Under the pieces are notes generated by a model, which had not been told where the DNA came from, did not search any database, and saw only the letters and a list, made by a program, of their open reading frames with translations. Positions 1 to 41,916 of a stretch of DNA of 41,916 nucleotides are shown here, piece after piece. The position numbers and the translations under genes were made by a program. Where the stretch lies: UHGV virus genome UHGV-0326656, one strand, 5' to 3'. The DNA comes from a virus. Numbering within the stretch: position 1 is the first letter of the stretch; each line of letters opens with the position of its first letter.

Positions 1-150
1 CCTGGTAAAGCGGCGATTGGTCGTCTGAAAGGTGAGGAACTGGCGCAATATAATTTGTGGCTGGATTATCTGGACGCACTGGAACTGGTCGATACTTCCG
101 GTGCGCCAGATATTGAATGGCCTACTCCTCCGGCAGTTCAGGCCAGATGA
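1..150 (+). CDS. tail fibre assembly protein (Tfa), C-terminal part; 5' end lies outside the window
   Basis: Frame 1 is open to the TGA at 148-150; translation ...GRLKGEELAQYNLWLDYLDALELVDTSGAPDIEWPTPPAVQAR is nearly identical to the C-terminus of the 40731..41162 ORF. Confidence 0.8.
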   Translation, partial: PGKAAIGRLKGEELAQYNLWLDYLDALELVDTSGAPDIEWPTPPAVQAR

Positions 151-724
151 CATCCGGCGCGGTGCTGGTATCCGTTGCCGTCACCGCGTCAATGTAATCC
201 AGCACAGCGTTTAGTCGGGTGGTTTCTGTCTGCGTCAGCTTCCTCCCGGCCTGCAATTTCAGTTGAATCAGACTAATGGAAGCCATTGCAGTATCAATTA
301 GTGACTGTCGCTGTACTTCTGCCGCTTTTACTGCGGCACCATATTGTGCCTCAGTATCTGTCACCCATTTCTCACCATCCCATTTATCGTATGGCGTTAA
401 TGGGACGATAGTGGTTGTATTTTCAGGGTAATCACCCGGAGCTGTGATTTCTTTTGATTCTCCTGTTTCAGTGCTATAGACAAATTCACCACGATGGTCT
501 GGCACATATATCCACGAGTTAAAATCTTCAGAACGGCAAATTGCATAACCAGTTTTGTATGGGCCAGGGGCATCTAAACAGGAACATGCCGGAATGCCGA
601 CACCAATGGCAAGATATTCTGTTGATGTGGAAATATATTCCCGCGTTTCACCATCATAATTATAAACGGTTATGTCTCCCGCTTTTATGGCAATGAGTTC
701 GTTATTTAAGACAACTTTATTCAT
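122..724 (-). CDS. tail fibre assembly protein, inverted-orientation copy (Tfa')
   Basis: 200-aa ORF about 85% identical to the 41134..41736 ORF; convergent with the + strand Tfa, as in Mu G / e14 P invertible segments. Confidence 0.8.
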   Translation of the reverse strand: MNKVVLNNELIAIKAGDITVYNYDGETREYISTSTEYLAIGVGIPACSCLDAPGPYKTGYAICRSEDFNSWIYVPDHRGEFVYSTETGESKEITAPGDYPENTTTIVPLTPYDKWDGEKWVTDTEAQYGAAVKAAEVQRQSLIDTAMASISLIQLKLQAGRKLTQTETTRLNAVLDYIDAVTATDTSTAPDVIWPELPEE

Positions 725-1179
725 CAGGCAGCCCTCACGATATAATTAAAGGCAATGTTACGAGGTCGGTTTTCGTTTGCAGTTGGAACAACTCTGGAAG
801 CATCGAATGTTACTCGCTTTGCATAACCACCTTTAATTGAATCCGATGAAGCATCTCCGATGACGCTGGTTGTAAAAACGCCAGAATCAGAAGGATAGGT
901 ATTGAACCTGACATCCACTAATGCACCAATTATATTTCGAATGGCATCGCCCTGTGATGAAAGCAAGCTACGGTTAGTATCTATTCCTCTTCCGTCATCC
1001 CAGCCACGAATAAACTCACCACGTAAATCTGGCAATTTATTTGTCGGATAAACTTTTGCCAGTTCCGGATACTCTTCGGCAGAAAAAGGCGCACCATTGC
1101 ATTTCAGCCAGCCTGTTGGCGGAGTGGCTGAAGGCCACGGAACAGGCACACCAACGGGTAATGCCGAACCTTCTCCCAA
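724..1179 (-). CDS. alternative tail fibre C-terminal (receptor-binding) segment; no ATG of its own, opens inside the crossover site
   Basis: Frame opens with TTG inside the gix-like site; Gly/Pro-rich tip sequence ending NIAFNYIVRAA; stop overlaps the Tfa' start. Confidence 0.6.
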   Translation of the reverse strand: MGEGSALPVGVPVPWPSATPPTGWLKCNGAPFSAEEYPELAKVYPTNKLPDLRGEFIRGWDDGRGIDTNRSLLSSQGDAIRNIIGALVDVRFNTYPSDSGVFTTSVIGDASSDSIKGGYAKRVTFDASRVVPTANENRPRNIAFNYIVRAA

Positions 1180-1196
1180 ACCAACCTTTTAGAAAA
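1171..1196. other. hix/gix-type 26-bp invertase crossover site
   Basis: TTCTCCCAAACCAACCTTTTAGAAAA matches the remembered hixL site at about 20 of 26 positions; lies between the variable fibre segment and the invertase start; its reverse complement shares core TT and half-site GGTTTGGGAGAA with 40359..40384. Confidence 0.6.
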
Positions 1197-1249: not shown

Positions 1250-1360
1250 ATGCTCATCGGTTATGTACGTGTGTCAACAAATGACCAGAACACCGCATTG
1301 CAACGAAACGCACTGGAGTGCGCAGGATGTGAACTGATATTCGAGGATAAGATCAGCGGC
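1250..1360 (+). pseudogene. serine DNA invertase (Pin/Gin/Hin family), 5' fragment of 37 codons
   Basis: MLIGYVRVSTNDQNTALQRNALECAGCELIFEDKISG matches the invertase N-terminus including the catalytic-Ser motif; similarity stops after codon 37. Confidence 0.7.
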
Positions 1361-1588
1361 AGATGGGGGGGCAGTCAGGGGGTTGCCCAGCTCAATTTGT
1401 TTGATGAAAACGCGCCACGCCCGGGTAGTGAGAAACTGATGGAAGTGTTGGATCACCTCAACGCCAAAGACGGCAGGGGAACCTTGTACTTTACCAGGCA
1501 GGGTATCCAGCCACAGTTGCAGATGAAACGCGAGATGCTTTCACCTAGATATACAACGAGATATGATGACATATTAAGAGTTAAATAG
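1361..1588 (+). pseudogene. UmuC-like Y-family polymerase subunit, 3' fragment fused in frame to the invertase remnant
   Basis: Tail ...QLNLFDENAPRPGSEKLMEVLDHLNAKDGRGTLYFTRQGIQPQLQMKREMLSPRYTTRYDDILRVK resembles the UmuC/MucB C-terminus as remembered; no upstream umuC body. Confidence 0.5.
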
Positions 1589-12443: not shown

Positions 12444-12454
12444 ATTTATAGGTA

Positions 12455-12477: not shown

Positions 12478-12497
12478 CGATGGATGGGATATTGAGG

Positions 12498-14447: not shown

Positions 14448-15378
14448 ATTAACCGGCTATGTATGGGATGGTTGCGCAGCGTCAGGCATGAAATTATCCA
14501 GCGTGGCAATTATGGCCCGCCTGGCTGATTTCAGTAATGACGAAGGTGTGTGCTGGCCATCAATTGAAACCATTGCCCGTCAGATTGGCGCGGGGATGAG
14601 TACCGTCAGGACGGCTATCGCACGGCTGGAAGCAGAAGGCTGGTTAACGCGTAAGGCGCGTCGCCAGGGTAACCGCAATGCGTCGAATGTTTATCAGCTT
14701 AACGTTGCGAAGCTTCAGGCAGCGGCATTTTCTCAACTGTCAGATTCTGACCCGTCAAAATCTGACGCATCAAAATCTGACCCGTCAAAATTTGATGCGT
14801 CGAAATCTGGCAAAAAAGCGGGTTTTCACCCGTCAGAATCTGGCGGGGATCCGTCAGTAAAATCAAAACATGATCCGTCAGATAAAAAACCTTCTCGTCC
14901 GGACGCTTCGCAACCGGACACGCAGACGGATGAACAGGATTTTTTAACTCGCCATCCTGATGCGGTTGTATTCAGCCCTAAAAAGCGCCAGTGGGGAACG
15001 CAGGATGATTTGACCTGCGCACAGTGGCTCTGGAAAAAAATCATCGCCCTGTACGAGCAAGCCGCCGAATGTGACGGCGAGGTGGTTCGTCCCAAAGAAC
15101 CGAACTGGACAGCCTGGGCAAACGAAATTCGCCTAATGTGTGTGCAGGATGGTCGTACTCACAAACAAATCTGCGAGATGTACAGCCGCGTCAGCCGAGA
15201 TCCGTTCTGGTGCCGTAACGTGCTCAGCCCGTCGAAGCTGCGGGAAAAATGGGATGAGCTTTCCCTGCGCTTATCACCGTCCGTCAGCACGTACACCGAA
15301 AAACGCGAAGACCCGTACTTCAAATCCAGTTACGACAACGTGGACTACAGCCAGATCCCGGCAGGATTCAGGGGGTGA
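14437..15378 (+). CDS. replication initiator (lambda O-like, winged-helix N-terminus) with internal iterons
   Basis: N-terminal winged-helix region (LSSVAIMARLADFSNDEGVCWPSIETIARQIGAGMSTVRTAIARLEAEGWL); central SKSD-type peptide repeats encoded by the DNA iterons. Confidence 0.75.
   Translation: MSTKLTGYVWDGCAASGMKLSSVAIMARLADFSNDEGVCWPSIETIARQIGAGMSTVRTAIARLEAEGWLTRKARRQGNRNASNVYQLNVAKLQAAAFSQLSDSDPSKSDASKSDPSKFDASKSGKKAGFHPSESGGDPSVKSKHDPSDKKPSRPDASQPDTQTDEQDFLTRHPDAVVFSPKKRQWGTQDDLTCAQWLWKKIIALYEQAAECDGEVVRPKEPNWTAWANEIRLMCVQDGRTHKQICEMYSRVSRDPFWCRNVLSPSKLREKWDELSLRLSPSVSTYTEKREDPYFKSSYDNVDYSQIPAGFRG
14738..14890. repeat. about eight direct 15-bp iterons (CCGTCAAAATCTGAC-like); candidate phage replication origin
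   Basis: Units at 15-bp period: CCGTCAAAATCTGAC, GCATCAAAATCTGAC, CCGTCAAAATTTGAT, GCGTCGAAATCTGGC, CCGTCAGAATCTGGC, CCGTCAGTAAAATC, CCGTCAGATAAAAAA. Confidence 0.7.
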
Positions 15379-23105: not shown

Positions 23106-24835
23106 GCCGGAAATCTTACCCCAACGTAAATGCTGCCAATCAGTATGCCCGTGATGTCGTGCGCGGAAAGATTGTGGCCTGCCAGTTTGTGATTCAGGCC
23201 TGCCAGCGCCATCTTGATGACCTGATGGAGGAAAAAAGTAAGTCGTTTCGTTACCGCTTCGACAAGGACCTGGCTGAACGGGCCGCGAAATTTATTCAGC
23301 TGTTGCCGCACACCAAGGGTGAGTGGGCATTTAAGAGGATGCCCATCACGCTGGAGCCGTGGCAGCTCTTTGTGATCTGCTGCGCGTTTGGCTGGGTCAA
23401 TAAAGGCTCCCGGCTGCGCCGCTTCCGTGAGGTGTATACCGAAATCCCCCGTAAGAACGGCAAATCGGCAATCTCTGCCGGTGTCGCCCTGTATTGTTTT
23501 GCCTGTGATAACGAGTTCGGCGCGGAAGTGTATTCCGGTGCCACGACGGAGAAACAGGCATGGGAAGTCTTTCGTCCGGCAAGACTGATGTGTAAACGCA
23601 CACCCATGCTGACGGAAGCGTTCGGGATTGAGGTTAACGCCTCAAACATGAACCGTCCGGAGGATGGTGCGCGTTTTGAACCGCTGATCGGTAACCCCGG
23701 TGATGGTTCATCACCCCACTGTGCGGTGGTGGATGAATATCACGAGCACGCCACAGATGCGCTTTACACCACGATGCTTACCGGGATGGGGGCGCGACGT
23801 CAGCCACTGATGTGGGCTATCACTACCGCCGGGTACAACATTGAGGGGCCGTGCTACGACAAACGGCGGGAAGTCATCGAGATGCTCAACGGCTCGGTGC
23901 CTAACGATGAACTGTTCGGGATCATCTATACCGTTGATGAAGGTGACGACTGGACCGACCCGCAGGTGCTGGAAAAAGCCAATCCAAATATTGGCGTGTC
24001 GGTTTATCGCGAATTTTTGTTAAGTCAGCAGCAGCGTGCGAAAAATAACGCCCGTCTGGCAAACGTCTTTAAAACAAAACACCTCAATATCTGGGTGTCG
24101 GCGCGTTCGGCGTATTTCAACCTGGTGAGCTGGCAGAGCTGCGAGGATAAATCACTGACCCTTGAGCAGTTCGAGGGGCAGCCGTGCATTCTGGCCTTTG
24201 ACCTGGCGCGTAAGCTGGATATGAACAGCATGGCGCGACTTTATACCCGCGAGATTGACGGTAAAACGCATTACTACAGTGTGGCCCCGCGTTTCTGGGT
24301 ACCGTATGACACGGTGTACAGCGTCGAGAAAAATGAAGATCGACGGACAGCCGAACGCTTTCAGAAATGGGTGGAAATGGGCGTTCTGACCGTTACCGAT
24401 GGTGCGGAGGTGGATTATCGCTACATCCTCGAGGAGGCCAAAGCGGCGAACAAAATCAGCCCGGTCAGTGAGTCACCCATCGACCCCTTCGGGGCGACCG
24501 GGTTGTCACATGACCTTGCTGATGAAGACCTGAACCCCATCACTATCATTCAGAACTACACCAACATGTCCGACCCGATGAAAGAGCTGGAAGCGGCAAT
24601 TGAATCGGGGCGCTTTCATCATGATGGCAATCCCATCATGACCTGGTGTATCGGCAACGTGGTCGGCAAAACCATTCCGGGTAACGATGATGTGGTGAAG
24701 CCCGTCAAAGAGCAGGCGGAAAACAAAATCGATGGTGCAGTTGCGCTGATTATGGCGGTTGGCAGAGCCATGCTGTATGAGAAAGAAGACACTCTGTCCG
24801 ACCACATTGAGTCCTACGGGATCCGCTCGCTTTAA
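23102..24835 (+). CDS. terminase large subunit
   Basis: 577 aa with Walker A-like EIPRKNGKS and nuclease-domain acidic residues. Confidence 0.9.
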
Positions 24836-24846
24836 CTGAGGTAATT

Positions 24847-25029
24847 ATGATCATGCTGATTCTCGCGCCTCTGGTGGGCGTGCTGGGGGTGCTTTTGCTG
24901 GCGTATGGTGCCTGGCTGATTTATCCCCCGGCGGGGTTTGTTGTTGCCGGGGCGTTGTGCCTGTTCTGGTCGTGGCTGGTGGCGCGATATCTCGACCGTA
25001 CACAGTCGTCTGTCGGCGGAGGTAAATAG
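24847..25029 (+). CDS. small hydrophobic protein, 60 aa
   Basis: Two predicted transmembrane helices ([26 protein letters not shown] / [18 protein letters not shown]); between terminase and portal. Confidence 0.45.
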
Positions 25030-26270
25030 TGTTCTTTTCGGGATTATTTCAACGAAAAAGTGACGCACCGATGACCACGCCAGCAGAGCTGGCGGATGCT
25101 ATCGGGTTGTCCTACGACACCTATACCGGAAAGCAGATCAGCAGCCAGCGGGCCATGCGACTGACGGCGGTTTTTTCCTGTGTCAGGGTGCTGGCGGAGT
25201 CGGTCGGGATGTTGCCCTGCAACCTGTATCACCTGAACGGCAGCCTGAAGCAGAGAGCCACTGGCGAACGTCTGCATAAGCTGATCTCCACGCATCCCAA
25301 TGGCTATATGACGCCGCAGGAGTTCTGGGAGCTGGTGGTCACCTGTCTGTGCCTGCGGGGAAACTTTTACGCCTACAAAGTGAAAGCATTTGGCGAAGTG
25401 GCTGAACTGCTGCCCGTCGATCCCGGCTGTGTGGTACCGAAGCTTAACAGTAGCTGGGAGCCGGTCTATCAGGTCACATTCCCGGATGGCTCCACGGATG
25501 TACTGAGCCAGGAAGATATCTGGCATGTGCGCACGCTGACGCTGGACGGACTGGTGGGGCTGAATCCCATCGCCTATGCCCGCGAGGCAATATCGCTGGC
25601 GGCAGCGACCGAAGAGCACGGGGCCAGACTGTTCAGCAATGGCGCGGTGACGTCGGGTGTGTTGCGTACAGAGCAGACGCTGTCAGATCAGGCTTATGAG
25701 CGCCTGAAGAAAGATTTTGAGGAGCGTCACACCGGGCTTGGCAATGCTCACCGCCCGATGATCCTTGAGATGGGGCTGGACTGGAAGTCGATGGCGCTGA
25801 ACGCCGAGGACAGCCAGTTCCTGGAAACCCGCAAGTTTCAGCTTGAAGAAATCTGTCGTCTGTTCCGGGTGCCATTGCACATGGTGCAGAACACCGATCG
25901 CGCCACCTTCAACAATATCGAAGAGCTGGGGCTGGGATTTATCAACTATTCACTGGTGCCGTATCTGACCCGCATTGAGCAGCGGATCAACACCGGACTG
26001 GTACGAAAAAGTAAGCAGGGCGTTTATTACGCCAAATTTAACGCCGGGGCCTTACTGCGCGGGGATATGAAGTCCCGTTTTGAAGCCTACGCTACCGGGA
26101 TCAACTGGGGAATTTACTCTCCCAATGACTGCCGCGACCTGGAAGATATGAATCCGCGTCCCGGTGGTGATGTCTATCTCACACCGATGAACATGACCAC
26201 GAAACCCTCCGATGGCAGTAAAGCCGGTAAGCAGAAGGATAACGCCAATGCAGACGAAACAACGTCTTGA
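25029..26270 (+). CDS. portal protein (HK97 family)
   Basis: 413 aa, GTG start with GGAGG ribosome-binding site; position and length typical of an HK97-type portal. Confidence 0.85.
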   Translation: MFFSGLFQRKSDAPMTTPAELADAIGLSYDTYTGKQISSQRAMRLTAVFSCVRVLAESVGMLPCNLYHLNGSLKQRATGERLHKLISTHPNGYMTPQEFWELVVTCLCLRGNFYAYKVKAFGEVAELLPVDPGCVVPKLNSSWEPVYQVTFPDGSTDVLSQEDIWHVRTLTLDGLVGLNPIAYAREAISLAAATEEHGARLFSNGAVTSGVLRTEQTLSDQAYERLKKDFEERHTGLGNAHRPMILEMGLDWKSMALNAEDSQFLETRKFQLEEICRLFRVPLHMVQNTDRATFNNIEELGLGFINYSLVPYLTRIEQRINTGLVRKSKQGVYYAKFNAGALLRGDMKSRFEAYATGINWGIYSPNDCRDLEDMNPRPGGDVYLTPMNMTTKPSDGSKAGKQKDNANADETTS

Positions 26271-32571: not shown

Positions 32572-34396
32572 ATTTGAGCTTAAGGCGTTGATCACCGGTG
32601 TCGACAGGCTTTCTCCCGCGCTGTCGAAAATGCAAAAGAAAATCCGGGGATTTAAACGCCAGGCGGAAGAAGCGTCACAGGGTGGGCTGGCGCTTGGTGG
32701 CGGACTGGCAGCGGGTCTGACGCTTTCCCTGAAATCTTATGCCGATCAGGAAAACGCCGCCACCGGGCTGAAAGTCGCCATGATGGATGCGAACGGCGAG
32801 GTTGGAAAGAGCTTTCAGGACATCAATAAACTGGCTATTGGCCTGGGTAACCAGCTACCCGGTACAACGGCTGATTTCCAGAACATGATGCAGATGCTGG
32901 TGCGTCAGGGGATCCCGGCAGAAAACATTCTTGGTGGTGTGGGTAAAGCGACAGCTTATCTTGCGGTACAACTGAAAAAAACACCGGAAGCGGCTGCTGA
33001 GTTTGCTGCAAAGATGCAGGATGCTACCGGAACGGCGTCAGAAGACATGATGGGGCTGTTCGACACTATCCAGAAGGCGTTTTATCTGGGCGTTGACGAT
33101 ACCAACATGTTGTCCTTCTTCACTAAAACCAGTTCTGTTCTGAAGATGGTGAATAAGGACGGACTTCAGGCTGCACAGAGCCTTGCCCCTATCAGCGTCA
33201 TGATGGATCAGATGGGGATGAACGGGGAGTCGGCAGGTAATGCCCTGCGAAAAGTTATCCAGTCCGGATTAAGCGTTAAGAAAATCAGGGACGTCAATAA
33301 AGTCATGGCCCGCCAGAAACTCGGGGTACAGCTCGATTTTACTGACGGCAAAGGAAGTTTTGGCGGTCTTGATAACATGTTCAGGCAACTGGCAAAGCTG
33401 CGAAAACTGACCGACGTTAAGCGAACAGGTGTACTTAAGGCAATATTTGGTGATGATGCCGAAACCCTTCAGGTGGTCAATGCACTAATCGATAAAGGAA
33501 AGGATGGCTACGATCAGATCCAGCAGAAGATGAATAAACAGGCCAGCCTGAATAAACGTGTTCAGGCCCAGCTTGGTACGCTGTCCAACCTGTGGGAGGC
33601 AATGACGGGGACCGCAACTAACGGCCTTGCGGCTATTGGTGGCGCATTTTCTGGTGACGCCAAAAATATCACGCAATGGCTGGGGGAGTTAGGGGAAAAA
33701 TTCACGAAGTTTGCGGATGAAAATCCCCGGGTTATTCGCGGCGTCGTCGGGCTTGCTGCCGGTCTTGCGATTCTGAAACTGGGATTGATGGGCGTTGGCG
33801 GTGCCATCAGTATTGTCAGCAGGATCATGTCGATGACGCCGATTGGAATGATTGCGACGGCGATAGCCCTGGCTGCGGGATTAATTATCACTAACTGGGA
33901 TGTTGTCGGACCTTATTTCAAGAAGCTCTGGGAAACCATTGGTCCTTATTTTGAGGCTGGCTGGGAACTTCTGAAGAAGGTTTTTGCCTGGTCGCCGCTG
34001 GGGATGGTAATCAATAACTGGGGACCGGTTGTTAAGTGGTTTCAGGATATGTGGGACAAGCTGAAGCCAATTATTGAGTGGTTTACCGACAGTTCCGGTG
34101 ACACGGTCGATGCCATTAACTCTGCGCAGTGGGGCGCGGGTGCTTATGATGCTTATGGGACGGGAATACTGGCGCGGGGATACACACCTTATCAGGCGGT
34201 AGATCCGGCTCAGTCAAACAACGCCTCCGATGCCACAGGCTCGAATCCCTTCATGATTAATAAAGCTACCGCGCCAAAAGTTGATGGTGAGATCAAGGTA
34301 TCATTTATAAATATGCCACCAGATATGCGGGTTACGGAAACACGCTCCAGTGGCATTGATATAAATCACGATGTTGGCTATACCCGATTTTGGTAG
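32564..34396 (+). CDS. tail tape measure protein
   Basis: 610 aa, Ala/Gly-rich with hydrophobic stretches (...GLAAGLAILKLGLMGVGGAISIV..., ...MTPIGMIATAIALAAGLIITNW...); follows the chaperone pair. Confidence 0.85.
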   Translation: MAEFELKALITGVDRLSPALSKMQKKIRGFKRQAEEASQGGLALGGGLAAGLTLSLKSYADQENAATGLKVAMMDANGEVGKSFQDINKLAIGLGNQLPGTTADFQNMMQMLVRQGIPAENILGGVGKATAYLAVQLKKTPEAAAEFAAKMQDATGTASEDMMGLFDTIQKAFYLGVDDTNMLSFFTKTSSVLKMVNKDGLQAAQSLAPISVMMDQMGMNGESAGNALRKVIQSGLSVKKIRDVNKVMARQKLGVQLDFTDGKGSFGGLDNMFRQLAKLRKLTDVKRTGVLKAIFGDDAETLQVVNALIDKGKDGYDQIQQKMNKQASLNKRVQAQLGTLSNLWEAMTGTATNGLAAIGGAFSGDAKNITQWLGELGEKFTKFADENPRVIRGVVGLAAGLAILKLGLMGVGGAISIVSRIMSMTPIGMIATAIALAAGLIITNWDVVGPYFKKLWETIGPYFEAGWELLKKVFAWSPLGMVINNWGPVVKWFQDMWDKLKPIIEWFTDSSGDTVDAINSAQWGAGAYDAYGTGILARGYTPYQAVDPAQSNNASDATGSNPFMINKATAPKVDGEIKVSFINMPPDMRVTETRSSGIDINHDVGYTRFW

Positions 34397-34424
34397 CCAG
34401 GATTCCCCTCACAGGTATTGCTGG

Positions 34425-34452
34425 TTGTAAGTCATAAATAGAGTGATAGAAT
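34425..34452 (+). promoter_or_regulatory. sigma70-like promoter for the tail-module moron
   Basis: TTGTAA, 16-bp spacer, TAGAAT; about 35 nt upstream of the 34488 start. Confidence 0.55.
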
Positions 34453-34487
34453 TAATGCACATTTAGAAAAATGTTAATAGGCGAAAA

Positions 34488-35018
34488 ATGAAAGGCTATA
34501 TCACAGCAAGTGTAATTCTTGGAGCAGCGGCTATTTTTTCATCTCTCATAATCTCTGGCAACATCTCCTTTAAAGATGAACATATTATTCAGTTATCTGG
34601 AGGAGCCATAAAACTTGGTGATGTTTATAAAGAAAATAAATTGATAAGTGCAAAGATTATTTTTCCAGATAATCAGGGTGAACAGATTCTTGTTGTCGAC
34701 GGCAATCCTGAAAACTTTAAGGAGGATTTTCAGGAGAAATTAAATAAAGTAATAAAAACTTTAAATGCGTCAAAGAAAAAAGATGAAGAGAAAGTTAGCC
34801 TGGATAATTTAAGTGTTATTGAAGAGTCTAAACTAGAGCTCGTTTCTGCGGTGCGTTACTCTGCTCAGTATGTTCCTATGTTTACTCTGACGCTGGACAA
34901 AAAAGAAATTACCATGCCTAAAAATACGGTAATATTTCCATTTGCCAGCGATGAAACAGCTAAGTATTTAAATGAACAACAGCAAAAGTATAAAGATTCG
35001 TTGTTTCTGACTCGCTAA
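34488..35018 (+). CDS. hypothetical membrane-anchored protein, 176 aa, AT-rich moron
   Basis: N-terminal signal/anchor (ITASVILGAAAIFSSLIISG); own promoter and terminator; interrupts the tail gene cluster. Confidence 0.65.
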   Translation: MKGYITASVILGAAAIFSSLIISGNISFKDEHIIQLSGGAIKLGDVYKENKLISAKIIFPDNQGEQILVVDGNPENFKEDFQEKLNKVIKTLNASKKKDEEKVSLDNLSVIEESKLELVSAVRYSAQYVPMFTLTLDKKEITMPKNTVIFPFASDETAKYLNEQQQKYKDSLFLTR

Positions 35019-35036
35019 TTAATAAAATTCATTACA

Positions 35037-35066
35037 AGGCCACCTTCTAATAGGTGGCTTTTTTAT
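35037..35066 (+). terminator. rho-independent terminator after the tail-module moron
   Basis: GCCACC-TTCTAATA-GGTGGC followed by TTTTTTATTTT. Confidence 0.8.
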
Positions 35067-35079
35067 TTTCGGAGTGTAT

Positions 35080-36408
35080 ATGACGTGGAAAGACAGGCTT
35101 CAGGATGCGTCATTTCGAGGTGTGCCGTTTAAGGTTGAAGAAGAAAGTGCGGGAACCGGTCGCCGTGTGGAAACACATGAATACCCGAACCGCGACAAGC
35201 CCTATACCGAAGATCTGGGAAAAGTCACTTTCCGCCCGTCCATCACAGCTTATGTGGTGGGAGATGACTGCTTTGACCAGCGCGATCGCCTGATTGAAGC
35301 GCTGAATAAACCAGGTCCCGGCACGCTTGTCCACCCGACATATGGTGAGCTGAAAGTCTGTGTTGACGGGGAAGTTCGGGTCAGCACATCGAAAAGTGAA
35401 GGGCGTATTGTCCGCTTTGACCTGAAGTTTGTCGAAGCGGGAGAACTCTCTTACCCCACATCAGGCGTGGCGACGGCGCAGACGCTGATGTCATCCTGTT
35501 CTGCACTGGATGACTGCATCAGTGACAGTTTCAGTAGTTTCAGTATCGATGGCGTGGCAGATTTTGTGCAGAACGACGTCGTCGGTAATGCCAGCACAAT
35601 GCTTGGGTATGTTTCTGATGCGATGAAAGTGGTGGATTCTGCCGTATCGGATGCCGCCAGGCTGTTGCAGGGGGATATCTCGGTACTTCTGCCGCCGCCA
35701 TCGTCAGGCAAAAATTTCGTTGAGCAGGTGCAGAAAATGTGGCGTACCGGGAAACGCCTTTATGGTAACGCCAGCGACCTGGTCACCATGATCAAAACGC
35801 TTTCCGGTGTCAGCCTCGGCAGCGATCTGCAACCGCGCGGCGTCTGGAAAACGGACAGTAAAACCACCGCCACGGCTACGCAGCAGCGTAACGTGGTTGC
35901 CAGCACCCTTCGTACGACCGCAATCAGCGAAGCGACGTATGCCGTCACCCGATTGCCTGCGCCAACAACTTCCGCGGTGATGCAGAATGCCGCAGTGGGG
36001 CAGGCAACAACACCTGCGCAGAGCACTGGCTGGCCTTCCGTCACGCATCCGGCACTGAACAATGCACCGGCGGTGAAAAACACAGTTGACCTGCCGACGT
36101 GGGAAGAACTGACTGACATTCGCGACACACTGAATACGGCAATTGATAAGGAGTTGTCCCGTACAACCAGTGATGCGCTGTTTCTGGCGCTGCGCCGGGT
36201 GAAAGCAGATCTGAATGCGGATATCAACACGCGCCTTGAACAGTCTGCACGGATCATTCAGCGCGCACCGGATGAGGTTTTACCCGCGCTGGTGCTGGCG
36301 GCGACCTGGTTTGATAACGCGGCGCGTGACGCGGACATTATTCGGCGTAATGCCATTACGCATCCCGGCTTTGTGCCGGTGATCCCTCTGAAGGTGCCAG
36401 TGCAATGA
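35080..36408 (+). CDS. DNA circulation protein (Mu N / gp43-like)
   Basis: MTWKDRLQDASFRGVPFKVEEESAGTGRRVETHEYPNRD... characteristic N-terminus; GGAG ribosome-binding site. Confidence 0.85.
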   Translation: MTWKDRLQDASFRGVPFKVEEESAGTGRRVETHEYPNRDKPYTEDLGKVTFRPSITAYVVGDDCFDQRDRLIEALNKPGPGTLVHPTYGELKVCVDGEVRVSTSKSEGRIVRFDLKFVEAGELSYPTSGVATAQTLMSSCSALDDCISDSFSSFSIDGVADFVQNDVVGNASTMLGYVSDAMKVVDSAVSDAARLLQGDISVLLPPPSSGKNFVEQVQKMWRTGKRLYGNASDLVTMIKTLSGVSLGSDLQPRGVWKTDSKTTATATQQRNVVASTLRTTAISEATYAVTRLPAPTTSAVMQNAAVGQATTPAQSTGWPSVTHPALNNAPAVKNTVDLPTWEELTDIRDTLNTAIDKELSRTTSDALFLALRRVKADLNADINTRLEQSARIIQRAPDEVLPALVLAATWFDNAARDADIIRRNAITHPGFVPVIPLKVPVQ

Positions 36409-37484
36409 ACGACAATGTCACGCTACGGGTAAATGGCCGGGAGTGGAATGGCTGGACATCGGTGCGCATCGGTGCCGGTATTGAACGGCTGGCGCGGGAT
36501 TTCAGTGTGGAGATCACCCGCCAGTGGCCGGGTGATGAGGGTATCACCACGCTTCAGCCGCGCATTAAAAACGGTTCAAAAGTGGAGGTGCTGATTGGTG
36601 ATGAGCTGGTGATCACCGGCTGGGTGGAGGCGACGCCCGTTCGTTACGATGCCCGTTCGGTCAGCACCGGTATTGCCGGACGCAGTCTGACCGCTGACCT
36701 GATTGACTGTGCAGCCGAACCGACACAGTTTAACGGACGATCGCTGGTACAGATTGCGCAGGCGCTTGCTGCGCCTTTCGGCATTGAGGTGGTGAACAAC
36801 GGTGCGCCGTCGGGTGTTATTCCTGACATCCAGCCTGATCACGGCGAAACGGTGATTGAGGTGATCAACAAAATACTCGGTCAGCAGCAGGCACTGGCTT
36901 ACGACGACCCGCACGGCAGGCTGGTGATTGGCGGTATTGGCTCAACTCGGGCACATACCGCGCTGGTACTTGGGGAAAACATCCTTTCCTGCGATACGGA
37001 GAAGAGTATCCGGGAGCGGTTTTCAGTTTACCAGGTGGCGGGGCAGCGTGCCGGAAACGACGATGATTTCGGTGAGGCCACCACCACCGCGCTGCGGGCC
37101 CGCACAGAGGACGCATTTATTGCCCGTTACCGTCCGATGTATATCAGGCAGACAGGGCAGGCCACGGGGGCAGGCTGTATTGCGCGTGCTGACTTTGAAG
37201 CCCGACAACGGGCGGCGCGGACGGATGAAACCACTTATGTGGTGCAGGGCTGGCGACAGGGTAACGGTACGCTGTGGCAGCCCAACCAGCGGGTGATTGT
37301 CTTCGATCCGGTCTGTGGTTTCGACAATACCGAACTGCTTGTTTCGGAAGTCACGTTTACTCAGGACCAGAACGGCACCCTGACGGAAATCCGTGTCGGC
37401 CCGCCTGATGCTTATCTGCCTGAACCCGAAGATCCCGGCGCGCGGAAAAAGAAAAAAGCCAGAGTACAGGAGGACCCGTTCTGA
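36405..37484 (+). CDS. baseplate hub protein (Mu P / gp44-like)
   Basis: 359 aa in conserved Mu-like order. Confidence 0.8.
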   Translation: MNDNVTLRVNGREWNGWTSVRIGAGIERLARDFSVEITRQWPGDEGITTLQPRIKNGSKVEVLIGDELVITGWVEATPVRYDARSVSTGIAGRSLTADLIDCAAEPTQFNGRSLVQIAQALAAPFGIEVVNNGAPSGVIPDIQPDHGETVIEVINKILGQQQALAYDDPHGRLVIGGIGSTRAHTALVLGENILSCDTEKSIRERFSVYQVAGQRAGNDDDFGEATTTALRARTEDAFIARYRPMYIRQTGQATGAGCIARADFEARQRAARTDETTYVVQGWRQGNGTLWQPNQRVIVFDPVCGFDNTELLVSEVTFTQDQNGTLTEIRVGPPDAYLPEPEDPGARKKKKARVQEDPF

Positions 37485-38032
37485 TGAGGGCGATTGAAGC
37501 CATGCAGCGACAACTTCTCGGCCTGATTGGGCGGGCCGTGGTGAAAAGCATCAGTGCCGGCACGAAATGTCAGACCGTGGATGTGTCCCTGATTGCCGGT
37601 GAACCCAAAGCCGGGGTTGAACATCTTGAACCCTACGGTTTTACCGCAAGGGCAAACAGCGGTGCGGAAGCGGTGGTGTTGTTTCCGGATGGCGACCGTT
37701 CTCATGCGGTGGTTGTTACGGTGTCGGACCGGCGCTACCGCCTGAAAGGGCTGCAGACGGGTGAGGTGGCTGTCTATGACGATCAGGGGCAGTCCGTGAC
37801 GCTGACCCGGGAGGGGATCGTGGTGGACGGTGCAGGTAAAACGATCACGTTTCGCAATTCACCTAAAGCACGTTTTGAAATGGACCTGGAAGTGACAGGA
37901 CAGGTGAAAGACCTGTGCGACTCCAGCGGCACTACCATGTCAGCGATGCGGCTTGCCTATAACGGGCATCGTCACAGAGAGAACGGTCAGGGCAGTAACA
38001 CCGACAAACCGGATAAAGCGATGGAGGCATGA
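37484..38032 (+). CDS. baseplate spike/assembly protein (Mu gp45, P2 V-like)
   Basis: 182 aa in conserved order. Confidence 0.75.
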   Translation: MRAIEAMQRQLLGLIGRAVVKSISAGTKCQTVDVSLIAGEPKAGVEHLEPYGFTARANSGAEAVVLFPDGDRSHAVVVTVSDRRYRLKGLQTGEVAVYDDQGQSVTLTREGIVVDGAGKTITFRNSPKARFEMDLEVTGQVKDLCDSSGTTMSAMRLAYNGHRHRENGQGSNTDKPDKAMEA

Positions 38033-38457
38033 TGGAACTGTGGCTGACGGTGAACGGTAAACGCACCTGCGCCAGCGCACCGCTGGATCCGCTGACCCGC
38101 GCCGTGGTGATTTCCCTGTTTACCTGGCGGCGGGCGGAGCCTGATGACAACGCCGACGTCCCGATGGGATGGTGGGGGGATACCTGGCCTGCGGTACAGA
38201 ATGACCGTTACGGCTCCCGACTGTGGCTGCTTCAGCGCAGCAAACTGACCAATCAGCTGGTGCAGACGGTAAGGGGGTATATCCGCGAATGCCTGCAATG
38301 GATGATTGATGACGGCGTGGTGTCCCGTATTGATCTGGATATCCGCCGCACCGGGATTAATGAGCTGGGTAACAGTATCACCCTCTGGCGTCGTGACGGA
38401 CCGGTAATGATTTCTTTTGATGATCTGTGGAGTGCGATAACGCATGGCGGACAGTGA
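38029..38457 (+). CDS. baseplate protein (Mu gp46, P2 W / T4 gp25-like)
   Basis: 142 aa in conserved order. Confidence 0.75.
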   Translation: MMELWLTVNGKRTCASAPLDPLTRAVVISLFTWRRAEPDDNADVPMGWWGDTWPAVQNDRYGSRLWLLQRSKLTNQLVQTVRGYIRECLQWMIDDGVVSRIDLDIRRTGINELGNSITLWRRDGPVMISFDDLWSAITHGGQ

Positions 38458-39502
38458 ATTTCAGCGCCCGACGCTGGCAGAAAATATCAGTATGCTCCGT
38501 AACGATTTATTCGCCAGGCTGGACGTCAGCGACACGCTCCGGCGCATGGATGAAGACGTGCGGGCAAAGGTGTATGCGGCGGCGCTGCATACGGTTTACG
38601 GGTACATCGATTATCTGGCAATGAACATTCTGCCTGACCTGTGCGATGAGTCCTGGCTGGCGCGACATGCTGCGATGAAACGGTGTCCGCGCAAGGGGGC
38701 CACGGCTGCCAGCGGGTATATGCGCTGGGAAGGTGTCAGCGATGGCCTGAAGGTGACCGCCGGGAGTGTTATTCAGCGCGATGACCTGGTGCAGTACACG
38801 GCAACTGCCGATGCAACCAGCTCCGGTGGTGTCCTGCGCGTGCCGATCGCCTGCTCAAATGCAGGCGCGGTCGGTAACGCTGACGACGGTACGGCATTAA
38901 TCCTGGTCACGCCGGTGAATGGTCTGCCGTCTTCCGGTGTGGCTGACACCCTGACAGGCGGATTTGATACTGAAGAGCTGGAAACGTGGCGCGCCCGCGT
39001 CATTGAGCGGTATTACTGGACGCCGCAGGGTGGGGCTGACGGGGACTATGTCGTCTGGGCTAAAGAAGTGCCCGGCATTACCCGCGCATGGACATACCGT
39101 CACTGGATGGGAACGGGAACTGTCGGTGTGATGATTGCCAGCAGTGACCTGATTAATCCCATTCCGGAAGAATCAACGGAAACGGCGGCAAGACAACATA
39201 TCGGGCCACTGGCCCCGGTGGCAGGCTCTGATTTGTATGTGTTCAGGCCGGTGGCACATACGGTGGATTTTCATATCCGCGTGACGCCGGACACACCGGA
39301 AATACGGGCTGCCATCACCGCGGAGTTGCGTTCGCTCCTGCTGCGTGATGGTTATCCGCAGGGAGAACTGAAGGTATCGCGTATCAGTGAGGCGATTTCC
39401 GGTGCGAACGGGGAATACAGCCATCAGTTGCTTGCACCGGCAGACAATATCTCCATTGCAAAAAATGAACTGGCGGTACTGGGGACGATTTCATGGACGT
39501 GA
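38444..39502 (+). CDS. baseplate J-like protein (Mu gp47)
   Basis: 352 aa in conserved order. Confidence 0.8.
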
Positions 39503-40077
39503 CAAACGATGATTACATCCGTCTGTTGTCGGCACTGTTGCCCCCCGGTCCGGCGTGGTCAGCCAGCGATCCGGCGATTGCCGGTGCGGCACCGTCATTA
39601 ACCCGCGTTCATCAGCGTGCGGATGCCCTGATGCGGGAGCTGGATCCGCGCACCACCACTGAACTGATAAACCGCTGGGAGCGTCTGTGCGGTCTGCCGG
39701 ATGAATGTATTCCCGCAGGGACACAGACCCTTCGCCAGCGTCAGCAACGGCTGGATGCGAAGGTTAACCTGGCGGGCGGCATCAACGAGAATTTTTATCT
39801 TGCACAGCTTGCTGCCCTGGGCAGACCAGACGCTACCATCACGCGATACGACAAAAGCACGTTCACCTGCTCATCGGCCTGTACTGACGCGGTGAATGCG
39901 CCGGAATGGCGGTATTACTGGCAGGTCAACATGCCAGCCGCCACAAACACCACCTGGATGACATGTGGCGATCCCTGTGATTCCGCGCTGCGTATCTGGG
40001 GCGACACCGTTGTCGAATGTGTGCTTAACAAACTCTGCCCGTCGCATACCTACGTAATTTTTAAATATCCGGAGTAA
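39493..40077 (+). CDS. tail protein (Mu gp48 / P2 I-like, YmfQ-type)
   Basis: 194 aa immediately upstream of the tail fibre gene. Confidence 0.7.
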
Positions 40078-40080
40078 TCC

Positions 40081-40728
40081 ATGCATCGTATAGACACGAA
40101 AACCGCGCAGAAGGATAAGTTCGGCGCGGGTAAGAACGGTTTTACCCGTGGTAACCCCCAGACAGGCACGCCTGCCACCGATCTGGATGATGACTACTTT
40201 GACATGTTGCAGGAAGAACTCTGCAGCGTGGTGGAGGCATCCGGTGCCAGCCTGGAGAAGGGGCGAAACGACCAGTTGCTTACCGCGCTTCGTGCTCTGC
40301 TGTTAAGCCGCAAGAATCCGTTTGGTGATATCAAATCGGATGGCACGGTGAAAATGGCTCTCGAAAACCTTGGTTTGGGAGAAGCGGCAAAACGGAATGT
40401 GGGGACAGGAGAAAATCAGGTACCGGATATGAACAACTTTGGTAACTCATTGACCGCCAATGGATACCAGAAATTACCTGGGGGGATGATTATTCAATGG
40501 GGGAGTTTTTCTGTCTCACCAACCGGAGGAAGTGTTGGAACAGTTGATATAACATTACCTGTAGCTTTCCCTGCTGCTTGTCGTTCGGTAAACGCTCTTA
40601 TTTCAACTAATGATCCTTCTGCCCGTTCTGTGGGCTTTGATATTGGAAGTACCAACAGAACTAAAATCAGATTTACTTACACTTCTGCTACAACAAATTC
40701 AATTTACTGGATGGCTGTGGGGTATTAA
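40081..40728 (+). CDS. tail fibre protein with conserved N-terminus and swappable C-terminal tip
   Basis: [24 protein letters not shown]... fibre N-terminus; composition turns AT-rich after the crossover site at 40359-40384. Confidence 0.8.
40359..40384. other. hix/gix-type crossover site inside the tail fibre gene (left boundary of the invertible segment)
   Basis: CTCTCGAAAACCTTGGTTTGGGAGAA: two 12-bp half-sites around a TT core; right half-site identical to the reverse complement of 1171-1196; encodes ...ALENLGLGE... at the constant/variable junction. Confidence 0.6.
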
Positions 40729-40730
40729 CT

Positions 40731-41162
40731 ATGGAAAAGACATATTATTTTAATCCCTCTGATTCGGGATTTTATATTTCACCAGATAGCCAAACCATTC
40801 CTGAGAACGCTACGAAAATAAACTTTACTATTTATTCTGAGTTCGCAGGAGTTGCATGGCCTGATGGTAAAATACTTGGTTCAGATAAAAATGGTTTTCC
40901 AGCATGGCAGGATGCGCCACCACTTACCAGCGAAGAATTAATCTCAATCGCTGAATCAAATAAACAGCGATTAGTTAATCAGGCCAACGAATACATGAAC
41001 AGTAAACAATGGCCTGGTAAAGCGGCGATTGGTCGTCTGAAAGGTGAGGAACTGGCGCAATATAATTTGTGGCTGGATTATCTGGACGCACTGGAACTGG
41101 TCGATACTTCCAGTGCGCCAGATATTGAATGGCCTACGCCTCCGGCAGTTCAGGCCAGATGA
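40731..41162 (+). CDS. tail fibre assembly protein (Tfa)
   Basis: 143 aa immediately after the fibre gene; C-terminal 50 aa shared with the inverted copy. Confidence 0.85.
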   Translation: MEKTYYFNPSDSGFYISPDSQTIPENATKINFTIYSEFAGVAWPDGKILGSDKNGFPAWQDAPPLTSEELISIAESNKQRLVNQANEYMNSKQWPGKAAIGRLKGEELAQYNLWLDYLDALELVDTSSAPDIEWPTPPAVQAR

Positions 41163-41736
41163 CATCCGGCGCGGTGCTGGTATCTGTTGCCGTCACCGCG
41201 TCAATGTAATCCAGCACAGCGTTAAGTCTGGTTGTTTCTGCCTGCGTCGGTTTACGTCCGGCCTGCAATTTCAGTTGAATCAGACTGATGGAAGCCATTG
41301 CTGCATCAATCAGTGACTGGCGCTGTGCTTCTGCCGCTTCTACTGCGGCACCGTATTGTGCCTCAGTATCTGTCACCCATTTTTCACCATCCCATTTATC
41401 GTATGGCGTTAACGGGGCGATAGTGGTTGTATTTTCGGGATAGTCGCCTAGTGCTGTGATTTCTTTGGCATCTCCCGTTTCGGTGTTATAGACTATTTCA
41501 CCTCGATGGTCTGACACATATTCCCATGATTTTAAATCCACAGAACGGAAAATTGTATAACCAGCCTTATATGTACCAGGAGCGTCTAAACAGGAATATG
41601 CAGGGATACCGACACCAATGGCAAGATATTCATTTGAAGTGGAAATATATTCCCGTGTTTCGCCATCATAGTTATAGACGGTAATATTTCCCGCCTTTGT
41701 AGCAATAAACTCGCTATTTAATACAGCGTTATCCAT
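41134..41736 (-). CDS. tail fibre assembly protein, inverted-orientation copy (Tfa')
   Basis: 200 aa, convergent with Tfa; about 85% identical to the 122..724 ORF. Confidence 0.85.
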   Translation of the reverse strand: MDNAVLNSEFIATKAGNITVYNYDGETREYISTSNEYLAIGVGIPAYSCLDAPGTYKAGYTIFRSVDLKSWEYVSDHRGEIVYNTETGDAKEITALGDYPENTTTIAPLTPYDKWDGEKWVTDTEAQYGAAVEAAEAQRQSLIDAAMASISLIQLKLQAGRKPTQAETTRLNAVLDYIDAVTATDTSTAPDVIWPELPEA

Positions 41737-41737
41737 T

Positions 41738-41916
41738 ATGCAGCCCTCACGATATAGTTAAATGCAATATTCCGTGGGCGAGTATCGGCAGGAACGACAT
41801 ACATTTCACCAATTGCCCGCTCATTAGAGTTGTTCAGCAATAGGCTTGAGCCATTACTGTCATGACCCGTAATTAAGATATCATTGGACAAAATAAGTGA
41901 GCCCGTACCTGCAGGA
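41738..41916 (-). CDS. alternative tail fibre C-terminal segment, partial (runs off the window)
   Basis: Minus-strand frame ...NDILITGHDSNGSSLLLNNSNERAIGEMYVVPADTRPRNIAFNYIVRAA with stop overlapping the Tfa' start; same terminal motif as the 724..1179 ORF. Confidence 0.7.

Follow-up and report, generated by a model that had tools for sequence, protein, structure and literature searches.

The window (the whole stretch of 41,916 bp analysed here, UHGV virus genome UHGV-0326656) carries two 26-bp crossover sites, A and B, that are the two ends of one invertible tail-fibre segment of 1,823 bp, and the segment lies next to an invertase gene of which only the first 37 codons remain. The best explanation as a whole, for which we would put the probability at about 0.85, is that the window represents a temperate, SfV/e14-like myovirus, its genome circularly permuted and in attP (phage) form; that its single segment, of the e14 P type, is an 'orphan' flipped in trans; and that the P2-type sequence at the end of the record was most likely put there by the assembler.

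One segment across the ends of a circular genome

Starting at the core of site A (40370/71), the segment runs to position 41012, resumes at position 1 and stops at the site B core (1183/84; Table 1). This path is contiguous in locus L004, where bases 1-6932 correspond to window 34081-41012 and bases 6933-12648 to window 1-5716 (each at 100% identity), and the passage from 41012 to 1 recurs in independent assemblies (L004 to L010, and L022). Likewise, all eight of the SfV-like contigs listed with this exact fibre gene run on into the native cassette (termed v1) and site B. The attP is intact, window 6501-6564 being common to one attR locus and one attL locus. Because attP is present and 41012 runs straight into position 1 in independent assemblies, the window is taken to be a circular permutation, and the record is best handled as a circle of 41,012 bp followed by an overrun. 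The integrase normally adjoins proA/proB; ARAGORN called no tRNA gene in the window, the att core comprising only the 3' end of thrW.

Table 1. Features of the fibre locus, in window coordinates
Feature	Position	Strand	Remarks
3' end of tfa	1..149	+	Native continuation of 41012; contiguous in L004
Native Tfa' (v1), chaperone for tip 2	122..724	-	Convergent with tfa; Pfam Caudo_TAP, E=7e-31; 100% identical to L004
Variable tip 2, Collar domain	724..1182	-	Pfam Collar PF07484, E=4.8e-15 (724-1179); silent here, no start codon outside the segment
Crossover site B, invertase-proximal	1171-1196	.	TTCTCCCAAACC AA CCTTTTAGAAAA on + strand; core 1183-1184
pin invertase remnant, codons 1-37	1250..1362	+	ORF runs to 1588, fused to DUF4113 (umuC-like C-terminal) fragment
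Putative Fis-dependent recombinational enhancer	1272..1334	.	Fis-consensus matches 1272-1286 and 1320-1334
Constant 5' part of tail-fibre gene, aa 1-97	40081..40371	+	Outside the segment; joins either tip
Crossover site A	40358-40383	.	CTCTCGAAAACC TT GGTTTGGGAGAA; core 40370-40371; within fibre CDS (...ALENLGLGE...)
Variable tip 1, Gp53-like_C	40372..40728	+	Pfam PF21882, E=3e-18; tip expressed in the orientation shown
tfa, chaperone for tip 1	40731..41162	+	Pfam Caudo_TAP, E=4.7e-30
315-bp stretch identical in SfV-native and P2-type cassettes	40797..41111	.	Switch to P2-type lies somewhere inside
P2-type Tfa' (41134-41736) and 3' end of P2-type Collar tip (41736-41916)	41112..41916	-	Not the native continuation of this phage

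Both sites are genuine, with orthologues in the crossover sites of the Escherichia coli e14 P segment. No base differs between site A and the site in stfP of K-12 e14 (L003 3779-3804), and the inverted repeat published for e14, TTGGTTTGGGAGAAG, lies within site A. The 12-mer GGTTTGGGAGAA has two exact copies in the window, in inverted orientation (0.17 expected), and a scan of the window with the family consensus TTCTCNNAAACCNNGGTTTNNGAGAA returned only sites A and B at 17 or more of the 20 specified positions (19/20 for A and 17/20 for B), against 0.00 matches in 200 dinucleotide shuffles. As in the Din family, the two are imperfect palindromes whose 2-bp cores agree when the sites are read inverted (TT at 40370-71, AA at 1183-84), and the gix sites of phage Mu, read directly, have the same architecture. 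The window has only two sites, as does the locus of each relative examined, rather than the three or more of multiple-inversion systems (p15B Min, the R64 shufflon, the three-tip EPEC P2-like locus), and no Rci-type tyrosine recombinase adjoins the segment. A two-site architecture of the Pin type accounts for the locus, as was confirmed by a look-up of the pin'::DUF4113 fusion protein. A promoter and terminator scan of positions 1-1700 performed no better than on shuffles.

The genes between the sites are those of a fibre switch: a Gp53-like_C tip and its Caudo_TAP chaperone face a second Caudo_TAP chaperone and a Collar tip, with the constant fibre N-terminus outside the segment. As it stands in the window, the fibre ORF (40081-40728) encodes 215 aa; inversion in silico creates an unbroken ORF of 249 aa, and in flipped relatives a 249-aa Collar fibre is called at the same position, so the fusions to either tip are open reading frames. 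The constant 5' region up to site A is about 97% identical at the nucleotide level to K-12 e14 jayE-ymfQ-stfP, whereas the whole window fibre is only 60% identical to K-12 StfP; tip 1 is therefore a different tip allele. Upstream of the silent tip 2, the outer half of site B introduces an in-frame TAA where the e14 leader is open (MPFACYFFIFINVG). Cassette modules have clearly been swapped among unrelated phages, including P2-like and SfV-like phages, HK97 and HK106; no phage among deposited genomes had both the v1 cassette and the pin remnant. For annotation, this means that one fibre gene has two alternative C-termini, one annotated in the 215-aa 'gp53-like' protein and the other in the 'phage tail protein' ORF at the opposite end of the window.

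Much of this had been recognized in a preliminary description of the window made from the sequence alone. The inverted arrangement of the sites, with a common TT core and half-site, the convergent Tfa and Tfa' genes with their alternative tips (as borne out by the Pfam matches) and the likeness to the Gin/Pin-type segments of Mu (G), P1 (C) and e14 (P) all stand, the last of these through the identity of site A with the e14 stfP site, the match to the published repeats and the occurrence of both orientations in nature. Site B had been placed correctly, and site A, given as 40359-40384, lies one base further to the left. The attribution of site B to another copy of the locus was mistaken: contiguity from 41012 to 1 and the presence of attP pair it with site A within one segment.

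The invertase remnant and the two orientations

In the ORF next to site B, Pfam detects Resolvase (residues 3-39) followed by DUF4113, and alignment with PinE, Gin and the invertase of a P2-like element breaks after ...EDKISG. This is the sole serine-recombinase match in the window, and no functional serine invertase (Resolvase catalytic domain plus HTH_7) adjoins a site; the ORF, a 112-aa 'recombinase' to an annotator, is a dead fusion. Relatives keep an intact gene (pinE in L001, L003 and L011; a 188-aa invertase in L012) while that of this phage is truncated, and so the locus is best seen as a substrate of enzymes of the family rather than as a complete autonomous system.

The distance from site to invertase ATG is equal in the window, in Mu (gixR-gin), in e14 and in the P2-like element, and within the remnant there is a putative recombinational enhancer. 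Its coordinates were set by a motif scan and by the geometry of the Hin enhancer, which measures 65 bp, has Fis sites at both of its ends and lies about 100 bp from hixL (PMC3798978, eLife); the two Fis-consensus matches of the window, whose centres are some 97 and 145 bp away from the core and 48 bp apart, agree with this, the motif being a degenerate one that here overlaps conserved coding sequence. Matches occur at the same positions in six sequences (the window, e14 pinE, M8 pinE, L011 pin, the P2-like invertase and Mu gin), a conservation that is not independent support for an enhancer, because the motifs sit in strongly conserved coding sequence (YVRVSTNDQ...). The deletion in pin begins 28 bp beyond the distal Fis motif, and both sites and the putative enhancer have been retained. 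This suggests that the short remnant has been kept for its cis-acting putative enhancer.

A look-up of the fusion protein, which gave 68 index blocks, is unbiased by the orientation of the segment, and of 23 contigs read in which the identical 112-aa fusion was present, about 10 had the segment flipped and 13 unflipped, every one (23/23) with a two-site, single-segment layout. Two of them (L038 and L042) match an in-silico flip of the window over 4,220 bp without a single mismatch, and four (L039, L040, L041 and L045) match the unflipped form equally exactly over the same length; both orientations, each the exact reverse complement of the other between the cores, are thus represented in six independent contigs (from related assemblies). 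Replacement of the segment, as an explanation for the difference between flipped and unflipped relatives, is argued against by this exactness. The presence or absence of an IS3 element occurs with either orientation in all four possible combinations (L041 and L042 have identical flanks), which by a four-gamete test implies that inversion has been repeated. Since both orientations are found beside an identical truncated invertase, inversion must have gone on after the loss of the invertase, and therefore in trans. It seems, then, that the segment still flips, probably by means of an enzyme borrowed from another prophage; one candidate would be the 188-aa invertase of the P2-like prophage, the sites of which have the same inner half-sites and core as those of the window. 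Inversion of the e14 P segment in trans, by PinQ, has been shown experimentally (Kirigo et al., NAR 2025, PMC12529663).

A locus without an intact serine recombinase might instead be a frozen relic, in which inversion ceased with the truncation and the sites are fossils, and the absence from complete E. coli genomes of any with both the truncated pin and the flipped orientation would agree with that. We consider this highly improbable, in view of the same truncated fusion beside exact copies of both orientations, the repeated inversion implied by the IS3 combinations, the intact state of sites A and B and of the putative enhancer, and the precedent of e14 inversion in trans.

Flipped junctions as such are present in complete E. 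coli genomes, and the negative result there for truncated pin together with a flipped segment was overturned by the fusion-protein look-up. Another marker for the lineage, the outer half-site of site B plus the next 5 bases (TTCTCCCAAACCAACCTTTTAGAAAATGCAG), was dropped, being found beside many other invertase loci with other cassettes: of the loci that it matched in collections of viral, metagenome and genome sequences, L022 alone retained the pin remnant (unflipped), and a scan of genome contigs with it gave no match.

The P2-type end of the record

The last 150 nt of tfa recur at window 1-149, with window 1-99 identical to 41013-41111, and the window holds parts of two versions of the cassette: v1 near its beginning and a P2-type version, v2, at its end (88.8% identity over 756 bp). 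In its final 805 bases the window has 100% identity to a P2-like prophage cassette with an intact invertase; L015, a locus from the same assembly as L004, shows this full identity. Over the stretches that they have in common with the window, eight such loci (L012-L019) are 99.5-100% identical to it, and the seven that span the interval are identical at 40797-41916. Mismatch maps show that P2-type loci depart from the window only at 40392-40796 and SfV-native loci only from 41112 on, while the v2 allele of Tfa' was found in none of the eight SfV/e14-like relatives compared (0/8), theirs being 86-90% identical to it. The window starts exactly 99 nt before v1 and v2 diverge, as would be expected at the end of a contig from a de Bruijn graph with k=99. 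The junction at the end of the window is absent from 5,426 complete E. coli genomes and from all other assemblies examined. Nor was the L004-type prophage arrangement found whole in those 5,426 genomes, no complete E. coli genome being more than 96% identical across the fibre region; from the absence of both the junction and the arrangement it appears that the host lineage is poorly sampled among complete genomes.

Positions 41112-41916 are probably an assembly path joined through the 315 bp of identical tfa, as indicated by the coincidence of coordinates and by the absence of this sequence from relatives, and the last 805 bases of the record probably come from a different prophage. Exchange by an invertase at site A is ruled out as the origin of this end, as the switch (40797-41111) lies inside tfa and SfV-native alleles are kept at 40392-40796. 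The preliminary description had taken the interval up to 41916 as the segment, which is correct as far as the switch inside tfa and fails for the last 805 bases, and had looked for a second site and an invertase just past 41916. These do follow in P2-like elements, about 270 and 350 nt further on, respectively; in this phage they are the site at 1171-1196 and the 37 codons at 1250-1362.

Might the junction nevertheless be genuine? Homologous recombination within the 315-bp identity with a co-resident P2-like prophage, whether as a cassette swap or as a rearrangement, would place the switch where it is, inside tfa and away from the crossover core, and the identity is long enough for RecA. Cassette modules do pass among phages of these kinds, other tip alleles occur within the same truncated-pin lineage (L043 and L044), and read pairs anchored on the seven SNPs at 40392-40796 could in principle bridge the identical stretch. 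A simple recombinant, however, would no longer have v1 beside attP and int on the same molecule, the 99-nt terminal identity points to a branch in an assembly graph, and no other assembly examined has the junction; we therefore regard a genuine recombinant as unlikely. Still less probable is the layout of the preliminary description, with two separate copies as in a tandem lysogen of two related phages, in which the window would end within a second complete segment (tip 1-Tfa-Tfa' v2-tip v2), its site and invertase lying past 41916, and 1-1196 would be the remnant of the other prophage copy. The window as given does hold two diverged copies, an attP-type junction is also expected of a tandem lysogen, and P2-like loci that are 99.5% identical to 40365-41916 have the site and an intact 188-aa invertase at the distances mentioned. 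Against this, SfV-like contigs with this fibre gene continue into v1 and site B in all eight cases, the eight SfV/e14-like relatives compared lack v2 Tfa', the window begins exactly 99 nt ahead of the divergence, and v2 is matched perfectly by a P2-like prophage in the very assembly that contains L004. Finally, a Min- or shufflon-like region with v2 and v1 in series and at least three sites, in a genome larger than 41,012 bp that was cut by the window, would explain the parts of two cassettes, and an invertible fibre locus with three tips and multiple sites does exist in an EPEC P2-like prophage. With two sites only in the window and a single segment in each of the 23 pin-remnant contigs read, and with the 99-nt coincidence left without explanation, we give this almost no credence. 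An assembly artefact thus remains the preferred reading of the end of the record: the cassette version of a P2-like prophage would have been appended through the identical part of tfa, most likely by the assembler.

Relation to known inversion systems

On the preferred explanation, a Din-family serine invertase (of the Pin/Gin/Cin/Hin type) would exchange strands at the 2-bp cores of both sites, so that the 97-codon N-terminus of the fibre would be joined either to the Gp53-like tip (with Tfa) or to the Collar tip (with Tfa'), and the swap would presumably alter receptor and host range. Of the invertase gene of this phage, everything after codon 37 has been deleted, with the stretch that contains the putative Fis enhancer kept, and inversion of the orphan segment would depend on a related invertase supplied in trans from elsewhere in the cell.

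The closest known system is the P segment of e14 with PinE in K-12. Gene order is the same (ymfQ-stfP-tfaP-tfaE-stfE-pinE), the left site is identical, and the inner half-sites, the TT core and the spacing from site to invertase are the same; the constant fibre part and the baseplate genes are about 97% identical in nucleotide sequence, and the cores are 1,823 bp apart in the window and 1,825 bp apart in K-12 e14 (equivalent to the published 1,797 bp between repeats; PMC12529663). On the other hand, the invertase of the window is cut to 37 codons plus a umuC-like fragment, its tip alleles have about 60% amino acid identity to StfP and to StfE, and e14 is a 15-kb cryptic remnant, whereas the window holds the full-length genome of a phage in its attP form. 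Site B also differs in its outer half, at 3 positions that place a stop codon in frame ahead of the silent tip; an externally initiated protein of the StfE/StfE2 type would therefore be impossible in this phage. In K-12, the reported effect of e14 inversion is defence against T2 via the chimeric StfE2 (PMC12529663), the counterpart of whose external reading frame is closed in the window.

The action of PinQ/PinR on e14 (PMC12529663) provides a parallel in mechanism, as there too one prophage's fibre segment is flipped by another prophage's serine recombinase, with the difference that in K-12 the cis-encoded PinE is still present while in the window phage the cis invertase has gone. The locus would then be a natural case of an invertible fibre segment that still switches after the loss of its own recombinase, extending the recent experimental evidence for invertases of one prophage acting on another; the type of switch is already well known, and current understanding of Din-family inversion systems is unchanged. 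We put forward tentatively, at slightly less than even odds, the further idea of an orphan host-range switch, in which the choice of receptor would be set by the invertases of unrelated co-resident prophages (P2-like, e14, Qin or Rac) that also have near-identical tip cassettes in common with the phage and exchange them with it. If this were true, the host range of one temperate phage would be governed by the prophage content of its host.

The invertible fibre loci of P2-like prophages, for which phase variation in culture is known, have in E. coli a half consisting of Gp53-like tip and Tfa that is 99% identical to that of the window phage, along with the same inner half-sites and core. Both orientations are seen among them (L012 versus L013), with the outer half-sites staying put. 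They differ in that the cassette is borne on a long shaft of the P2 H type (468-502 aa, versus the 97-aa N-terminus in the window), in their outer half-sites (TTCTCGCATACC and CGTTTAAGAAAA) and in their intact 188-aa invertase, which is 86% identical to PinE.

Further parallels are Mu G with Gin and P1 C with Cin, in which a constant fibre N-terminus likewise lies outside two convergent pairs of tip and chaperone, and the 26-bp sites likewise have AAACC-NN-GGTTT centres. In Mu, the spacing from the right-hand site to the invertase gene behind it is the same, as are the positions of the Fis motifs, and Gin is 78% identical to PinE. Peculiar to Mu are the 3-kb segment, the 170-codon constant part, the unrelated tips, the core TC/GA (TT/AA in the window) and the intact invertase. 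The Hin/H system of Salmonella uses a recombinase of the same family together with hix-like sites of 26 bp, and its Fis enhancer lies about 100 bp away from the site, within the 5' end of the invertase gene, but there a promoter is flipped together with the invertase gene itself, resulting in a flagellin switch rather than the exchange of a coding C-terminus.

The crossover sites and the segment between them

The crossover site inside the fibre gene (site A) and the invertase-proximal site (site B) are the only places in the window at which the 12-mer GGTTTGGGAGAA is found, in opposite orientations (0.17 occurrences expected in the window), and in a window scan with the palindromic family consensus only these two reached at least 17 of the 20 specified positions (200 dinucleotide shuffles gave a mean of 0.00 matches). 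A preliminary description of this DNA had recognized two inverted 26-bp sites, and both exist, but it had set site A one base too far to the right (40359-40384). Its gene layout (convergent Tfa/Tfa' genes and alternative fibre tips) agrees with the ORFs found here, namely the fibre gene, a Caudo_TAP gene, a convergent Caudo_TAP gene and a reversed tip. From the reading frames, fibre codons 1-97 fuse in frame to either the Gp53-like or the Collar tip, and the outer half of site B (CCTTTTAGAAAA, 1185-1196) contributes a TAA that is in frame with the silent tip and stands shortly before it.

Features of the fibre locus and its surroundings (plus-strand coordinates)
Feature	Coordinates	Sequence or content	Remarks
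Site A	40358-40383	CTCTCGAAAACC TT GGTTTGGGAGAA	core TT
Site B	1171-1196	TTCTCCCAAACC AA CCTTTTAGAAAA	core AA
Fibre gene, Gp53-like_C tip	40081-40728		ORF and domain match
Caudo_TAP chaperone (Tfa)	40731-41162		ORF and domain match
Caudo_TAP gene (Tfa', window start)	122-724		ORF and domain match
Reversed tip, Collar-domain ORF	724-1179		ORF and domain match
pin'::DUF4113 fusion ORF	1250-1588	Pin residues 1-37 including catalytic serine motif, then umuC-like C-terminal fragment	
IS3-family element	2843-4099	orfA 2898-3206, orfB 3203-4069	inserted in SRAP (YedK-like) gene
SRAP gene remainder, 142-aa ORF	4097-4525 (-)		interrupted by IS3
attP core	6501-6564	64 bp, overlap of attR (L007) and attL (L047) matches	int stop codon at edge

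The two sites had been assigned to separate copies of an invertible segment, a layout that has to be abandoned: they are the two ends of one segment. Contigs encoding the window's exact 215-aa fibre protein run unbroken into the genes of the window start (in the order Tfa', 151-aa Collar tip, 112-aa resolvase/DUF4113 ORF, 331-aa ORF, IS3), and in one SfV-native contig (L004) window 34081-41012 is followed directly by window 1-5716, both at 100% identity. The window has an attP-type junction as well, with 6200-6564 corresponding to an attR locus (L007, with cargo and then host genes) and 6501-6800 to an attL locus (L047, with int and then proA/proB). The overlap of these matches shows that the window represents the phage form (excised, circular or tandem) and not a simple integrated prophage, and, taken with the contiguity of L004, that it is a phage genome of 41,012 bp in circularly permuted form. 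Its invertible segment covers 40372-41012 and continues from 1 to 1182, with 1,823 bp between cores. The attP core resembles the 3' end of tRNA-thrW; ARAGORN called no tRNA in the window. The wider phage is SfV/SfI/SfIV-like, and members of this group are related to e14 and integrate at thrW beside proA (PMC3636060). Four relatives (L006 to L009) have an intact 227-aa SRAP gene without the IS, and against these the IS3 junctions overlap by about 3-4 nt, as expected of a target duplication.

Relationship to e14 and the invertase remnant

The family assignment made in the preliminary description (Mu G/P1 C/e14 P architecture) was correct. In e14 of Escherichia coli K-12 the gene order ymfQ-stfP-tfaP-tfaE-stfE-pinE is that of the window (as it is in an intact relative from strain M8), the DNA of the constant fibre part and of the baseplate genes shows about 97% identity to it, the stfP site is identical to site A, and the pinE-proximal site differs from site B in its outer half only. 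The published e14 repeats, TTGGTTTGGGAGAAGG and CCTTCTCCCAAACCAA (PMC12529663), are the same sequences as the window's. Mu gix sites (read in NC_000929) share the AAACC-NN-GGTTT architecture, and the distance from site to invertase start codon is equal in Mu, e14, the P2-like element and the window. On sequence grounds, then, the segment is the e14 P segment, a member of a well-known kind. The outer half-site of e14 (CGTTTATGAAAA, 5620-5631 of the fetched part, L003) leaves the frame open to an external ATG with a 14-codon leader, whereas the window has TAA there, so the externally initiated StfE/StfE2 proteins reported for K-12 cannot come from the window's segment.

In IMG/VR and metagenome contigs (L020 to L037) the CCTTTTAGAAAA outer half-site also adjoins many other invertase loci, whose cassettes differ. 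One metagenome contig (L032, ERZ1034915 NODE-4680) carries the 31-nt site-B pattern twice, unaltered and in inverted orientation, at 24-54(-) and 1886-1916(+), a distance of about 1.8 kb, and would thus be a segment with an invertase-type outer half at both sites. The fetched part of e14 matches window 14267-14670, 23699-25436 and 38715-40393 at 97-98%, stretches lying tens of kb apart in the window, which fits an origin of e14 by deletion from such a phage. The Tfa' and Collar-tip module (1-1184) shows 87-91% DNA identity to the side-tail-fibre/tfa regions that HK97, HK106 and similar lambdoid siphoviruses carry (phage 500465-1 was also compared), and such tip/chaperone modules move between myovirus and siphovirus tails.

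Homology to pin stops near 1362, no resemblance to a serine recombinase was found elsewhere in the window, and the phage's own invertase is evidently dead. The truncating deletion joined pin to a DUF4113 (umuC-like C-terminal) fragment (1363-1588); the 331-aa ORF downstream (1608-2603) has no Pfam match, and the cargo after pin is wholly different among relatives (mcrA in K-12, a GIY-YIG protein in M8, a KAP NTPase in the intact pin relative L011). Two matches to the degenerate Fis consensus (1272-1286 and 1320-1334) are centred 48 bp from each other, at about 97 and 145 bp from the core; they overlap conserved coding sequence, and three pinE genes, the P2-like invertase gene and Mu gin have them at the same positions as the window. 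They fit the geometry of the Hin enhancer, a 65-bp element that has Fis sites at its two ends and starts about 100 bp from hixL (PMC3798978). As the distal motif ends at 1334, the pin deletion would have spared the putative enhancer by 28 bp.

Both orientations and inversion in trans

A look-up by the exact 112-aa fusion protein is unbiased as to orientation. Among the 23 contigs read from it, about 13 have the constant part joined to the Gp53-like tip, and in about 10 a Collar fibre of 249 aa (or 266 aa) takes that position. Four (L039, L040, L041 and L045) match window 39493-41012 plus 1-2700, the native sequence, with no mismatch over 4,220 bp; two (L038 and L042) match, again without mismatch, the version in which the 1,823 bp between cores are reverse-complemented, and L046 has one mismatch to this in-silico flip. 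The truncation is identical in all fusion contigs compared and therefore happened once, so that at least one inversion must have followed it. Moreover, presence and absence of IS3 are each seen in both orientations, and the flanks of L041 and L042 are identical over 5.5 kb, which together indicate repeated inversion. The sole identical inverted repeat, of 15 bp, is too short for RecA-mediated exchange, implying a site-specific event that needs an invertase in trans. Judged from these genomes, the orphan segment still flips, a modest twist in that a segment without its own invertase keeps switching.

In the Din family, invertase dimers bind two 26-bp sites, a Fis-bound enhancer in cis assembles the invertasome, and staggered cuts at the 2-bp cores with 180-degree subunit rotation invert the segment. 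Here the putative Fis-bound enhancer would assemble the invertasome in cis, and inversion would decide whether the constant fibre codons read into the Gp53-like tip, with Tfa expressed alongside, or into the Collar tip, with Tfa' alongside. If Mu and P1 are a guide, these tips may bind different receptors, giving a lysate with two host-range types. Continued switching is probably due to the retained stub of the invertase gene with its putative enhancer.

A candidate trans enzyme is the P2-like invertase, which is 86% identical to PinE and whose sites share the inner half-sites and core; two P2-like loci (L012 and L013) differ by the same flip, their outer half-sites staying with the flanks. 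PinQ inverts the e14 segment in trans experimentally (PMC12529663), e14 and P2-like loci both phase-vary in laboratory cultures (PMC4272514), and both junction types are present among intact-pin relatives in complete E. coli genomes. Among the pin' fusion contigs, L043 and L044 have differing tip alleles (a 266-aa Collar fibre, 97% identical to the flipped construct over the common part, and a 215-aa fibre in a region only 94.5% identical to the native sequence), so cassettes have been replaced as well as flipped in the truncated-invertase lineage.

The right-hand end of the record

SfV-native relatives are identical to the window through 41111 and diverge from 41112 (85 mismatches by 41768), whereas P2-like prophage loci differ from it at seven positions only, all in 40392-40796, and are identical from 40797 to 41916. 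The exact Tfa' protein of the window end turned up in P2-like contexts only, among them a second contig of the assembly that yielded L004; its allele was absent from all eight SfV/e14-like relatives compared, and the junction was not found in complete E. coli genomes. The last 805 bases thus appear to belong to another element. Window 1-99 is identical to 41013-41111, the native and P2-type cassettes first differing at base 100; a k=99 de Bruijn contig that stops at a branch of the graph would have just such a 99-nt end. The record thus seems to combine a circle of 41,012 bp with a 904-bp overrun exiting into a P2-like prophage cassette, most likely (roughly two chances in three) because the assembly path left the phage circle for a P2-like prophage co-resident with it. 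The main alternative is real homologous recombination in tfa. The switch to P2-type sequence falls within 315 bp of perfect identity inside that gene. Invertase-mediated exchange is ruled out by this position, away from the crossover core.

A second site and invertase had been predicted beyond 41916. P2-like loci do have a crossover site about 270 nt past the matching position, followed, according to orientation, by an intact 188-aa invertase or the P2 H gene, but the phage's own pair is site B and the pin' remnant.
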